This document shows, piece after piece, positions 62 through 4,122 of a stretch of 4,218 nt of DNA (position 1 is the stretch's first letter; each line of letters begins with the position of its first letter). The notes under the pieces are model-generated. The model made no database searches. It saw only the letters and a list, made by a program, of their open reading frames with translations, and was not told where the DNA came from. This stretch comes from Escherichia phage Qbeta, in the sequence record FJ483842.1. One strand, given 5' to 3'. A program made the position numbers and the translations under genes.

Positions 62-1324
62 ATGCCTAAATTACCACGTGGTCTGCGTTTCGGAGCCGAT
101 AATGAAATTCTTAATGATTTTCAGGAGCTCTGGTTTCCAGATCTCTTTATCGAATCTTCCGACACGCATCCGTGGTACACACTGAAAGGTCGTGTGTTGA
201 ACGCTCACATGGATGACCGCTTACCTAATGTAAGTGGTCGCCAAGTACGGCGTACTCCACATCGCGCTACTGTTCCGATTGCCTCTACAGGCCTTCGTCC
301 AGTAACAACCGTTCAGTATGATCCCGCAGCACTATCGTTCTTATTGAACGCTCGTGTTGATTGGGATTTCGGTAATGGCGACAGTGCGGACCTTGTCATT
401 AAAGACTTTGTTTTCCGTACCTTTGCACCTAAGGATTTCGATTTCTCGAATTCCTTAGCTCCTCGTTATACCCAGGCCTTCTCCGCCTTTAATGCCAAAT
501 ATGGCGTTATGATCGGTGAAGGGCTCGAGACTATAAAATATCTCGGGCTTTTACTGCGCAGACTGCGTGAGGGTTACCGCGCTGTTAAGCGCGGCGATTT
601 ACGTGCTCTTCGCAGGGTTATCCAGTCTTACCATAAAGGTAAATGGAAACCGACTACTGCTGGTAATCTCTGGCTTGAATTTCGTTATGGCCTTATGCCT
701 CTCTTCTACGACATCAGAGATGTTATGTTAGATTGGCAGAGCCGCCATGATAAGATTCAACGCCTCCTTCGATTTTCAGTTGGTCATGGTGAGGACTACG
801 TTGTCAAGTTTGACAACTTGTATCCCGCCTTAGCCTACTTTAAACTGAAAGGTGAGATTACTCTCGAACGCCGTCATCGTCATGGCATATCTTACGCGAA
901 TCGCGAAGGATATGCTGTTTTCGATAACGGTTCCCTTCGGCCTGTGTCCGATTGGAAGGAACTTGCCGTCGCGTTCATCAATCCTCACGAAGTTGCTTGG
1001 GAGTTAACTCCTTACAGCTTCGTTGCCGATTGGTTTTTGAACGTTGGCGACATACTTGCTCAGCAAGGTCAGCTATATCATAATATCGAGATCGTAGATG
1101 GTTTCGACAGACGTGACATACGGTTCAAATCATTCACTATTAAAGGTGAACGAAATGGACAGCCTGTTAACGTATCTGCGGACTTATCTACTATCGATAC
1201 ATTTTATAGTCGACTTCATGCTAGCAATATTCCGTTCGCTACACTAGATCTCGATACTACCTTTAGTTCGTTTAAACACGTCCTAGATAGTATCTTTTTA
1301 TTAACCCAACGCATTAAGCGTTGA
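62..1324 (+). CDS. A2: Maturation protein A2 (pilus attachment protein; in Qbeta also the lysis protein, a MurA inhibitor)
   Basis: ORF of 420 aa, ATG at 62 preceded by a Shine-Dalgarno-like AAGAGGA, TGA stop at 1322..1324. It is the first gene, as in the levivirus order maturation - coat - replicase. The protein (MPKLPRGLRFGADNEILNDFQELWFPDLFIESSDTHPWYTLKGRV...) matches my recollection of Qbeta A2 along its whole length, with scattered substitutions; Qbeta A2 is also 420 aa. Confidence 0.93.
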   Translation: MPKLPRGLRFGADNEILNDFQELWFPDLFIESSDTHPWYTLKGRVLNAHMDDRLPNVSGRQVRRTPHRATVPIASTGLRPVTTVQYDPAALSFLLNARVDWDFGNGDSADLVIKDFVFRTFAPKDFDFSNSLAPRYTQAFSAFNAKYGVMIGEGLETIKYLGLLLRRLREGYRAVKRGDLRALRRVIQSYHKGKWKPTTAGNLWLEFRYGLMPLFYDIRDVMLDWQSRHDKIQRLLRFSVGHGEDYVVKFDNLYPALAYFKLKGEITLERRHRHGISYANREGYAVFDNGSLRPVSDWKELAVAFINPHEVAWELTPYSFVADWFLNVGDILAQQGQLYHNIEIVDGFDRRDIRFKSFTIKGERNGQPVNVSADLSTIDTFYSRLHASNIPFATLDLDTTFSSFKHVLDSIFLLTQRIKR

Positions 1325-1345
1325 AACTTTGGGTCAATTTGATCA
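1250..1345 (+). promoter_or_regulatory. Probable S-site region (S1/replicase binding site upstream of the coat start), including a U-rich tract near 1290..1310
   Basis: Seen in sequence: an A/U-rich stretch (TATCTTTTTATTAA at about 1293..1306) at the 3' end of A2, just upstream of the coat initiation region. Established knowledge: Qbeta replicase binds an S-site at about nt 1247..1346 through ribosomal protein S1, which represses coat translation. The boundaries are taken from the literature by position, not derived from this sequence. Confidence 0.35.
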
Positions 1346-1746
1346 TGGCAAAATTAGAGACTGTTACTTTAAGTAACATCGGGAAAGATGGAAAGCAAAC
1401 TCTGGTCCTCAACCCGCGTGGGGTAAATCCCACTAACGGTGTTGCCTCGCTTTCAGAAGCGGGTGCAGTTCCTGCATTGGAGAAGCGTGTTACCGTTTCG
1501 GTATCTCAGCCTTCTCGTAATCGTAAGAACTACAAGGTCCAGGTTAAAATCCAGAACCCGACCGCTTGTCCTGCAAACGGTTCTTGTGACCCATCCGTTA
1601 CTCGCCAGGCATATGCTGACGTGACTTTTTCGTTCACGCAGTATAGCACCGATGAGGAACGAGCTTTTGTTCGTACAGAGCTTGCTGCTCTGCTCGCTGG
1701 TCCTCTGCTGATCGATGCTATCGATCGACTGAACCCAGCGTATTGA
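1345..1746 (+). CDS. cp: Major coat (capsid) protein
   Basis: ATG at 1345..1347 and leaky TGA stop at 1744..1746 give 133 codons. The translation (MAKLETVTLSNIGKDGKQTLVLNPRGVNPTNGVASLSEAGAVPALEKRVTVSVSQPSRNRKNYKVQVKIQNPTACPANGSCDPSVTRQAYADVTFSFTQYSTDEERAFVRTELAALLAGPLLIDAIDRLNPAY) is near-identical to the Qbeta coat as I recall it, including the two Cys of the disulfide-forming loop. The ORF-track start at 1321 is a TTG that overlaps the A2 stop and is not the true start. Confidence 0.95.
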   Translation: MAKLETVTLSNIGKDGKQTLVLNPRGVNPTNGVASLSEAGAVPALEKRVTVSVSQPSRNRKNYKVQVKIQNPTACPANGSCDPSVTRQAYADVTFSFTQYSTDEERAFVRTELAALLAGPLLIDAIDRLNPAY

Positions 1747-2334
1747 ACATTGCTCATTGCCGGTGGTGGCTCAGGGGAAAACCCCGATCCGGTTGATCCG
1801 GATCCACCGATTGATCCGCCGCCAGGGACAGGTAGTTATACTTGTCCCTTCGCAATTTGGTCTCTGGAAGAGGTTTATGAGCCTCCTACCATTGATCGAC
1901 CGTGGCCTATCTATCGTGCTGTTGAACTCTCGTCTCGCAAGTTTGATGTTGCCCTTGATGATCTCTTGGGTAACACTAAATGGCGTGACTGGGATTCTCG
2001 GCTTAGGTATACCACGTTCCGCGGTTGCCGTGGCAATGGTTATATTGACCTTGATGCGACTTATCTCGCTACTGATCAAGCTATGCTCGATCAGAAGTAC
2101 GATATTCGCACGGGCAAAAGACCTGGTGCCTTTGGCAAAATTGAACAATTTATTTATCTTAAGTCGATAAATGCATATTGTTCTCTCAGCGATATTGCGG
2201 CCTATCACGCCGACGGCGTAATAGTTGGCTTTTGGCGCGATCCATCTAGTGGTGGTGCCATACCGTTTGACTTCACTCAGTTTGATAAGACTAAATGTCC
2301 TATTCAAGCCGTGATAGTCGTTCCTCGTGCTTAG
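1345..2334 (+). CDS. A1: A1 read-through protein (minor capsid protein): coat protein extended through the UGA at 1744..1746, about 329 codons
   Basis: Seen in sequence: the 1750..2334 ORF is in the same frame as the coat, and only the single TGA at 1744..1746 separates them. The stop is followed by A (UGA-A, a leaky context). The extension begins with a Gly/Pro-rich linker (GGGSGENPDPVDPDPPIDPPPGTGS) and ends ...CPIQAVIVVPRA, followed by tandem stops TAG TAA (2332..2337). Established knowledge: Qbeta A1 arises from low-frequency read-through of the coat UGA by tRNA-Trp and is needed for infectivity. Confidence 0.85.
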
Positions 2335-2348
2335 TAACTAAGGATGAA

Positions 2349-2368
2349 ATGCATGTCTAAGACAGCAT
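2349..2368 (+). promoter_or_regulatory. Replicase translational operator hairpin (coat-protein binding site) enclosing the replicase start codon
   Basis: Seen in sequence: ATGCATGTCTAAGACAGCAT folds as an 8-bp stem (2349-2352 and 2354-2357 pairing with 2361-2368), with a bulged A at 2353 and a 3-nt loop UAA (2358..2360). The replicase ATG (2353..2355) lies inside the stem. Established knowledge: this is the architecture of the Qbeta operator through which coat protein dimers repress replicase translation. Confidence 0.7.
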
Positions 2369-4122
2369 CTTCGCATAACTCTCTTAGCGCACAATTGCGC
2401 CGAGCTGCGAACACAAGAATTGAGGTTGAAGGTAACCTCGCACTTTCCATTGCCAACGACTTAATGTTGGCATATGGTCAATCGCCATTTAGTTCTGAGT
2501 CTGAGTGTATTTCACTCAGCCCGAAATTCGACGGAACCCCGGATAACTTTAGGATAAATTATCTTAAAGCCGAGATCATGTCGAAGTATGACGATTTCAG
2601 CCTAGGTATTGATACCGAAGCTGCTGCATGGAAGAAGTTTCTAGCAGCAGAGGCTGAATGTGCTTTAACGAACGCTCGTCTCTATAGACCTAACTACAGT
2701 GAGGATTTCAATTTCTCACTGGGTGAGTCGTGTCTTCACATGGCTCGCCGAAAAATAGTTAAGTTGATAGGAGATGCTCCGTCCGTTGAGGGTATGTTGC
2801 GTCATTGCCGATTTTCTGGCGGTGCCACAACAACGAATAACCGTTCATATGGTCATCCGTCCTTCAAGTTTGCGCTTCCACAAGCGTGTACGCCTCGGGC
2901 TTTGAAATATGTTTTGGCTCTTAGAGCTTCAACGCATTTCGATATCAGAGTTTCTGATATTAGCCCTTTTAATAAAGCAGTTACTGTACCAAAGAACAGT
3001 AAAACCGATCGCTGTATTGCTATCGAACCCGGTTGGAATATGTTTTTCCAATTAGGTATCGGTGGCATTTTACGTGATCGGTTGCGTTGTTGGGGTATCG
3101 ACCTGAATGATCAGACGATAAACCAGCACCGCGCTCACGAGGGCTCCGTTACTAATGATTTAGCAACGGTTGATCTCTCAGCGGCAAGCGATTCTATATC
3201 TCTTGCTCTCTGTGAGCTCTTATTACCTCCAGGTTGGTTTGAGGTCCTTACGGATCTCAGATCACCTAAGGGGCAATTGCCTGACGGTAGTGTTATTACC
3301 TATGAGAAAATTTCTTCCATGGGTAATGGTTACACATTCGAGCTCGAGTCGCTTATTTTTGCTTCTCTCGCCCGTTCCGTTTGTGAGATACTGGACTTAG
3401 ACTCATCTGAGGTCACTGTTTACGGAGATGACATTATTTTGCCATCCCGTGCAGTCCCTGCTCTTCAGGAAGTCTTTAAGTATGTTGGTTTTACTACCAA
3501 TACTAAAAAGACTTTCTCTGAGGGGCCGTTCAGAGAGTCGTGCGGTAAGCACTACTATTCTGGCGTAGATGTTACTCCCTTTTACATACGTCGCCGCATA
3601 GTGAGTCCTGCCGATTTAATATTGGTTTTGAATAACCTATATCGGTGGGCCACGATTGACGGCGTATGGGATCCTAGAGCCCATTCTGTATATCTCAAGT
3701 ATCGTAAGCTGCTGCCTAAACAGCTGCAGCGTAATACTATACCTGATGGTTACGGTGATGGTGCTCTCGTCGGATCGGTCTTGATCAATCCTTTCGCGAA
3801 AAACCGCGGGTGGATCCGGTATGTTCCGGTGATCATAGACCATACAAGGGACCGAGAACGCACTGAGTCAGGATCGTATCTCTACGATCTTTTCTCGCGC
3901 TGCTTCTCGGAAAGTAACGATGGGTTGCCTCTAAGGGGTCCGTCGAGTTGCGATCCTGTATATCCACTTGCCATAGATCAGCTTATATGTAAGAGTAATC
4001 CTACAAAAATAAGCAGATCTACTGGTAAGTTTGATGTACAGTATATCGCGTGCAGTAGCCGTGTTCTGGCACCCTACGGGGTCTTCCAGGGCACGAAGGT
4101 TGCGTCTCTACACGAGGCGTAA
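2353..4122 (+). CDS. rep: RNA-dependent RNA polymerase, replicase beta subunit
   Basis: ORF ending at TAA 4120..4122. Starting at ATG 2353 (AGGA at 2341..2344, 8 nt spacer) gives 589 aa, the size of the Qbeta beta subunit; the in-frame ATG at 2344 would add MKC but sits on top of the SD. Catalytic motifs are intact: motif A Asp at 3172..3174 (VDLSAASD) and motif C YGDD at 3421..3432. The sequence MSKTASSHNSLSAQLRRAANTRIEVEGN... matches my recollection of Qbeta replicase, with substitutions. Confidence 0.95.
   Translation: MSKTASSHNSLSAQLRRAANTRIEVEGNLALSIANDLMLAYGQSPFSSESECISLSPKFDGTPDNFRINYLKAEIMSKYDDFSLGIDTEAAAWKKFLAAEAECALTNARLYRPNYSEDFNFSLGESCLHMARRKIVKLIGDAPSVEGMLRHCRFSGGATTTNNRSYGHPSFKFALPQACTPRALKYVLALRASTHFDIRVSDISPFNKAVTVPKNSKTDRCIAIEPGWNMFFQLGIGGILRDRLRCWGIDLNDQTINQHRAHEGSVTNDLATVDLSAASDSISLALCELLLPPGWFEVLTDLRSPKGQLPDGSVITYEKISSMGNGYTFELESLIFASLARSVCEILDLDSSEVTVYGDDIILPSRAVPALQEVFKYVGFTTNTKKTFSEGPFRESCGKHYYSGVDVTPFYIRRRIVSPADLILVLNNLYRWATIDGVWDPRAHSVYLKYRKLLPKQLQRNTIPDGYGDGALVGSVLINPFAKNRGWIRYVPVIIDHTRDRERTESGSYLYDLFSRCFSESNDGLPLRGPSSCDPVYPLAIDQLICKSNPTKISRSTGKFDVQYIACSSRVLAPYGVFQGTKVASLHEA
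2545..2870 (+). promoter_or_regulatory. Approximate M-site (internal replicase binding site) within the replicase gene
   Basis: Established knowledge only: in Qbeta the M-site lies at about nt 2545..2867. It is placed here by positional homology, since the window appears collinear with Qbeta with a +1 offset. I did not fold this region and cannot confirm the branched structure. Confidence 0.3.
2973..2980 (+). other. Candidate upstream partner of the long-range pseudoknot with the 3'-terminal hairpin loop
   Basis: Seen in sequence: TAAAGCAG (2973..2980) can pair antiparallel with CTGCTTTG (4196..4203) in the loop of the 3'-terminal hairpin, 7 Watson-Crick pairs plus one G-U. Established knowledge: Qbeta needs a pseudoknot between the 3' hairpin loop and a sequence about 1200 nt upstream, near the M-site; the distance here is about 1220 nt. 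Confidence 0.45.

Follow-up and report, generated by a model that had tools for sequence, protein, structure and literature searches.

Introduction

Lysis by the maturation protein A2 through inhibition of MurA is the textbook mechanism of phage Qbeta, A2 being able to lyse cells when it is the only phage protein expressed. Qbeta A2, a single-gene lysis protein (Sgl) of type I, binds the closed, UDP-GlcNAc-bound form of MurA, with most of the contacts placed in a beta-region of residues 30-120 (PMC12856241 for this range), and the shortest lytic fragment of the protein is formed by residues 1-180 (Cui 2017, as cited in PMC12856241). At the C-terminus, cytosolic lysis depends on T415, on Q416 and on the stretch as far as R417 (2026, Genes to Cells, PMC12856241); the substitutions V418S and V418E kept lysis, and a phage carrying A2-V418K was defective in cytosolic lysis yet infectious (PMC12856241), so that even in Qbeta free A2 may not fully explain release. 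Lysis by A2 alone, its suppression by excess MurA or by resistant murA alleles, and the inhibition of MurA in vitro are established for canonical Qbeta only; the resistant allele rat is reportedly L138Q. Poor lysis was reported for the original 'Q' isolate, and the lytic strength of A2 may therefore vary in nature; mutation within the Qbeta lineage is said to have raised this strength, and A2 production responds to single base changes.

Lysis genes of other kinds have been described in related phages. The L gene of MS2 (1678..1905), whose product is a type II Sgl, bridges coat and replicase, and MS2-type L genes use termination-reinitiation. De novo origin in alternative reading frames is known for genes of the sgl type, and genes that arose in this way need not be conserved. 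In a published screen, ∼22 of the 158 sgl candidates that combined a minimum length, a Shine-Dalgarno (SD) sequence and a transmembrane domain (TMD) were active, overt lysis was seen for 7 of 293, and 178 TMD-bearing candidates had no effect. For Qbeta itself, a cryptic lysis gene of 67 aa has been described in the +1 frame close to where the replicase gene begins, with a mechanism distinct from that of A2 (Nishihara 2004, as cited in PMC12856241). According to the same account, its product arises either by a +1 shift after GAG in the sequence GAGGUUG or by a restart at UUG. The ORF has also been put forward as an explanation for the release of Qbeta particles independently of A2.

Results

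Gene content and closest relatives

The window analysed, a stretch of 4218 nt (FJ483842.1), is the full-length genome of a Qbeta-group ssRNA coliphage (Qubevirus durum), referred to below as the isolate. Megablast matched it to 84 phage records, the best of which was strain VK (FJ483843; 95.7% over the full length); the identity to canonical Qbeta (AB971354) was 92.0% at the nucleotide level. An IMG/VR contig of 2890 nt (3300019216_000421, hereafter L023) is nearer than VK, with 96.9% nucleotide identity.

The genome encodes four proteins, A2, coat, A1 and replicase, all on the plus strand, and the identical four-gene layout is annotated in every Qbeta-group record fetched. The 5′-proximal gene, at 62..1324 including the stop codon (ATG at 62, TGA at 1322..1324; 420 aa), is that of the A2 maturation/lysis protein: its product matches Pfam PF03863 (Phage_mat-A, E = 1.6e-134) over residues 36-420 and PHROG 4286 with E = 2.4e-141, in agreement, to the exact coordinates, with an earlier note on this DNA that had taken this ORF for A2. 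The coat gene follows at 1345..1746 (Levi_coat, E = 3.8e-60, and the annotation of relatives) and ends in a leaky UGA (1744..1746), beyond which the A1 read-through extension occupies 1747..2334 (Read-through, PF16814, at 1750..2331, E = 1.1e-96; annotated in relatives as well). The replicase beta subunit gene lies at 2353..4122 (RNA_replicase_B, E = 1.1e-216).

The A1 read-through domain fills the interval between coat and replicase, which leaves no room at this junction for a lysis gene of the MS2 type, and the ORF map combined with the Pfam matches revealed no ORF bridging the two genes in the isolate. The earlier note had described the interval in these terms, and had set the genome apart from MS2; on both points the present data bear it out.

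Conservation of A2

The A2 of the isolate aligns end to end and without gaps with the Qbeta A2 chains 5VLZ, 5VM7 and 7LHD (E = 5.9e-278), which come from structures of the virion and of the complex with MurA (5VM7). It shares with Qbeta A2 (PDB 5MNT, 5VLZ, 5VM7, 7LHD) its length of 420 aa, its genomic position and its Pfam family, within a four-gene genome that likewise bears an A1 read-through. The two proteins are identical at 393 of 420 positions (93.6%) and differ by 27 substitutions and no indels; in the closest genomes, VK and L023, A2 is 97.4% and 98% identical, respectively, to that of the isolate. Four of the isolate's residues are missing from all 13 other genomes compared (N227S, V322A, D343E and A377T), none of them in residues 1-180. 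The C-terminus reads ...LLTQRIKR, so that T415, Q416 and R417 are as in Qbeta, and I418 (V418I relative to Qbeta) is the majority natural allele.

The segment homologous to the shortest lytic fragment of Qbeta A2 (residues 1-180, encoded at 62..601) is identical to that of Qbeta at 170 of 180 positions (94.4%). Its ten substitutions are L50M, G58S, V69A, S76T, N110D, N114K, L117V, E125D, V133A and T149V. None of the ten residues is confined to the isolate among natural genomes, since nine recur in named isolates and M50 in L023; at position 50, VK, MX1 and M11 have I or F. No weight was placed here on the por substitutions, reportedly L28P, D52N and E125G. The first seven of these changes fall within residues 30-120 (149..421), the region with most of the reported MurA contacts, in which 84 of 91 residues are identical to those of Qbeta and 80 of the 91 do not vary across 11 Qbeta-type genomes.

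A2 is under strong purifying selection: over the same 11 genomes, dN/dS was 0.078 for the whole protein, 0.083 for residues 1-180 and 0.074 for residues 30-120. The beta-region also binds the F-pilus, so that conservation there is not specific to lysis, and the selection observed could reflect pilus binding.

The seven substitutions in the reported contact region could be taken to mean that the A2 of the isolate binds MurA weakly, leading to poor lysis or to chronic phage production, as for the original 'Q' isolate; that the lytic strength of A2 has been mutable in the Qbeta lineage, and that single base changes affect A2 production, would fit such a reading. How the seven would bear on lysis was judged from their conservative nature or from their being shared with other plaque-forming isolates. 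All seven residues occur elsewhere: M50 in L023, the other six in isolates that were obtained by plating on E. coli. The region that contains them is under strong purifying selection (dN/dS 0.074, as above). A weakly lytic A2 is, on this evidence, highly improbable.

Alternative-frame candidates in the genome

A total of 61 alternative-frame starts on the plus strand open at least 25 codons. They were filtered with the criteria for sgl candidates of Chamakura et al. 2020 (at least 25 codons, an SD sequence and a TMD), using as cut-offs an anti-SD duplex energy of at most −4 kcal/mol and a 19-residue Kyte-Doolittle mean (KD19) of at least 1.6. Three loci passed: ATG1155..1247 (30 aa, within A2), TTG1793/ATG1877..2170 (within the read-through domain) and TTG3656..3784 (42 aa, within replicase), all in the +1 frame. 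From the sequence alone, the statement in the earlier note that no extra ORF is supportable would not be evident, since three ORFs satisfy the sgl criteria; it held once comparative tests were applied.

The ability of these tests to detect a genuine embedded lysis gene was apparent in a positive control with seven MS2-group genomes. The part of replicase lying under L had a dS of 0.027, compared with 0.405 downstream, a 15-fold fall in the overlapped gene, and dN/dS in the L frame was 0.37, the median elsewhere being 1.88. When the Qbeta-group alignment was scanned in segments of 45 codons, no L-like collapse of dS was found (median 0.25, minimum 0.073); the minima lay at the coat start, at 2500-2700 and 3520-3670 in replicase, and in the 150 nt immediately preceding the replicase gene. 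The +1-frame dN/dS went down to 0.58 at the lowest among the 45-codon segments, and the own-frame dN/dS of all candidate ORFs was at least 0.89. There is thus no comparative sign of another coding overlap in the genome. None of the candidate peptides resembled MS2 L or a PHROG in similarity searches.

The ORF starting at TTG3656 has an SD-like sequence and encodes a hydrophobic peptide, and in 13 of 13 genomes it remains open and its start is preserved; its own-frame dN/dS is 0.89, the replicase-frame dN is 0.004, and the hydrophobicity is lost in MX1 and M11. The ATG1155 ORF, which has a weak SD sequence and is also hydrophobic, is likewise open in 13 of 13 genomes, and the stretch enclosing it has an own-frame dN/dS of 1.58. 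Both remain open because the protein that each overlaps is strongly conserved; showing no selection of their own, they were rejected and are judged incidental. A minus-strand ORF of 178 aa (1771..2307) was rejected too, as it is interrupted by stops in all 12 relatives and its length is within reach of chance (P = 0.21); translation of levivirus minus strands is not known.

An isolate-specific +1 ORF in the read-through domain

The most conspicuous of the candidates belongs to a +1-frame stretch of 145 codons without a stop (1733..2170), which overlaps the read-through domain. The ORF within it, 1757..2170, would encode 137 aa from TTG1757 or 97 aa from ATG1877. A membrane-active lysis protein translated from TTG1757, GTG1763, GTG1766 or ATG1877 up to 2170, and adding to A2 or replacing it, would agree with several of its features: a basic N-terminus, a very hydrophobic segment (maximum KD19 of 2.54, compared with 1.74 for MS2 L), an SD-like AGAGG ahead of ATG1877 (duplex energy −5.2 kcal/mol) and the known de novo origin of sgl genes in alternative frames. 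Moreover, the three early starts lie 11-20 nt past the UGA of the heavily translated coat gene, making termination-reinitiation conceivable. The likeness to MS2 L extends to the outline only, namely a +1-embedded ORF starting near the coat stop, whose product has a basic N-terminus and then a hydrophobic segment. These features, and the LS/IS dipeptides that the peptide also contains, carry little information; no alignment with MS2 L was obtained at E ≤ 100, nor does the ORF show the conservation or the selection signature of L, and what the coat-replicase junction of the isolate holds in place of such a gene is A1.

The comparison with relatives argues strongly against a function. The full ORF is open in the isolate only, where a TGG codon in the +1 frame (1865..1867) stands in place of the stop codon present in 13 of 13 relatives (the 12 Qbeta/MX1/M11 genomes and L023), including the two nearest genomes, VK and L023, which consequently lack the 137-aa ORF. 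The sequence at this point is CTG GAA in the isolate, CTA GAA in L023 and CTA GAG in VK, so that a single CTA>CTG change (1864..1866), synonymous in the A1 frame, removed the +1 stop and opened the ORF. Metagenome contigs contained no exact match to a 28-mer around the TGG variant. The internal ATG1877 is ACG in 8 of 13 genomes.

Neither the length of the ORF nor its substitution pattern calls for a coding function. In 1000 shuffles, the longest alternative-frame run reached at least 145 codons in 14.5% of cases when codons were permuted and in 10.9% when synonymous codons were shuffled (P 0.11-0.15). The own-frame dN/dS was 1.4-1.6, and the A1-frame dS over the ORF (0.296) was higher than the domain mean (0.204). 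As for the internal start, AUG1877 and the SD-like GAGG take part in the base pairing of a local hairpin with an energy of −12.6 kcal/mol; for segments of equal size, the fold energy came to −2.9 around the coat start, −4.4 around that of A2 and −8.1 for the replicase operator. Considering also the low yield of active candidates in the published screen (∼22 of 158, with 7 of 293 overt) and the lack of similarity to MS2 L or any PHROG, it is highly improbable that this ORF provides a lysis protein. The stretch 1733..2170 was accordingly rejected as a hidden gene, since its length is in the chance range, it is open in a single genome, it is unselected and its internal AUG is sequestered; the ORF is judged non-functional. 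It would take ribosomes reinitiating after the coat UGA for the CTA>CTG change, by joining a start region near the coat stop to a hydrophobic frame, to have created a newborn second lysis gene, targeted to the membrane, and we regard this as a far-fetched outcome.

The cryptic +1 ORF at the start of replicase

The earlier note had concluded that a separate lysis gene is absent. That part stands insofar as none is conserved or selected, but the note had overlooked the cryptic gene published for the +1 replicase frame, which is truncated here. When the gene was reconstructed in canonical Qbeta, 24 replicase codons plus 43 +1-frame codons gave exactly 67 aa. Both the locus and the GAGGUUG site are common to Qbeta and the isolate, which keeps GAGGTTG at 2422..2428 with the UUG at 2426; in the isolate, however, the +1 frame ends after 12 codons at a TAA (2462..2464), owing to an ATG in place of CTG at replicase codon 38. 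The remnant (2422..2464) would thus yield a product of 36 aa in total, with 31 of the 43 +1-frame residues lost.

The same ORF is broken in 7 of 12 Qbeta-type genomes. VK, BZ1 and L023 carry the isolate's TAA, and TW18, FrSangria and GIII_C carry a TAG at codon 25. The UUG was found in Qbeta and the isolate only, and the own-frame dN/dS was 1.58. Together, the breaks in relatives, the rarity of the UUG and this dN/dS value indicate that the ORF is not a conserved feature of the group: the cryptic gene is not conserved across the Qbeta group and is disabled in the isolate. A contribution to lysis from a +1-frame protein made at the replicase start has in its favour the description of such a protein for canonical Qbeta (67 aa, with a mechanism other than that of A2, in the account cited above) and the retention of the shift/restart site. 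Given that merely 36 aa could be produced, and that the gene is cryptic even in Qbeta, the chance of such a contribution is negligible, and the ORF was rejected as the lysis gene of the isolate on account of its truncation.

Discussion

The results make it very probable that the isolate lyses its host through A2 and that it has no separate lysis gene under selection. That its own A2 binds MurA and lyses cells is expected from homology, as the earlier note had also cautioned. The proposal in the earlier note that A2 acts as the lysin through MurA is supported as far as a sequence comparison can take it, with 93.6% identity to Qbeta A2 (94.4% in residues 1-180) and T415, Q416 and R417 intact. 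By analogy with Qbeta, once enough A2 had accumulated, its N-terminal beta-region would bind host MurA in the closed, UDP-GlcNAc-loaded form; murein precursor synthesis would then be blocked at its first committed step, and growing cells would burst at the septum.

Lysis through A2, as expected for the isolate, matches established knowledge of Qbeta. The mechanism being the textbook one and the genome a natural variant of the same species, the finding has little importance beyond correct annotation. The facts added are modest, namely that the cryptic +1 ORF is truncated in the isolate, and that an isolate-specific +1 ORF exists which has no comparative support. Two consequences may nevertheless be of use. 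The combination of ORF finding with SD and TMD criteria flagged several candidates, none of which is under selection, and this counsels caution in the prediction of sgl genes in metagenomic leviviruses. In addition, the isolate, VK, BZ1 and L023 naturally lack an intact cryptic +1 ORF, and they might therefore serve as a natural control for the idea that this ORF underlies A2-independent release of Qbeta particles.

Synonymous divergence along the genome

To describe synonymous change, 11 Qbeta-type genomes were scanned in windows of 45 codons, for which the genome median dS was 0.25. The coat gene (1345..1746) showed a dS of 0.119, compared with 0.290 for A2, which encodes the maturation protein, and 0.232 for the replicase gene, i.e. 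a synonymous divergence two to three times below that of either. The minimum within the coat gene (0.073) was located at 1360..1494. No conserved ORF overlapping the coat gene was found in these 11 genomes, and the depressed synonymous rate is probably due to constraints acting at the RNA level.

Further local minima, with dS values of ∼0.09–0.11, were seen at 2500..2700, 3520..3670 and 2185..2319. The first of these falls where, in phage SP, an internal replicase-binding region ('m') is annotated, while that at 2185..2319 sits immediately upstream of the replicase start and its operator. A dS peak of 0.5–0.62, more than twice the genome median, covers positions 692..916 (A2 residues ∼211–285).

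The 42-codon ORF at 3656..3784, which lies in the +1 frame and begins with TTG, is open and retains its start codon in all 13 of the Qbeta, MX1 and M11 genomes compared. This can be accounted for without invoking a gene, since its own-frame dN/dS is 0.89 and the replicase sequence that it overlaps is near-invariant.

Length variation was observed at the start of the read-through extension (∼1780..1815), where Qbeta-type strains differ by in-frame indels of 3–9 nt. These indels, evident from alignment gap counts and A1 lengths, lie in a Pro/Asp-rich linker past the coat stop codon.

Related genomes and their annotation

Among the Qbeta strains TW18 (FJ483840), HL4-9 (FJ483841), VK (FJ483843) and BZ1 (FJ483844), the one nearest to the 4218-nt window is VK. 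In LC710219.1, the record of a relative, the name 'lysis protein A2' has been given to the coat ORF, and 'capsid protein A1' to the read-through ORF; this looks like mislabelling. The maturation-protein family is called 'head maturation protease' both in PHROGs (PHROG 4286) and in RefSeq (MX1p1, MS2g1), and the product of 62..1324 belongs to the family so named (PHROG 4286); in the literature consulted, no description of a protease function was found for these proteins. RefSeq entry NC_001890.1 is titled 'Escherichia phage Qbeta' but bears MX1 locus tags, and shares only ∼74% nucleotide identity with the Qbeta-type genome of the window, with A2 identity at only 65%. Homology 'to Qbeta' argued via this RefSeq entry is in reality homology to MX1.
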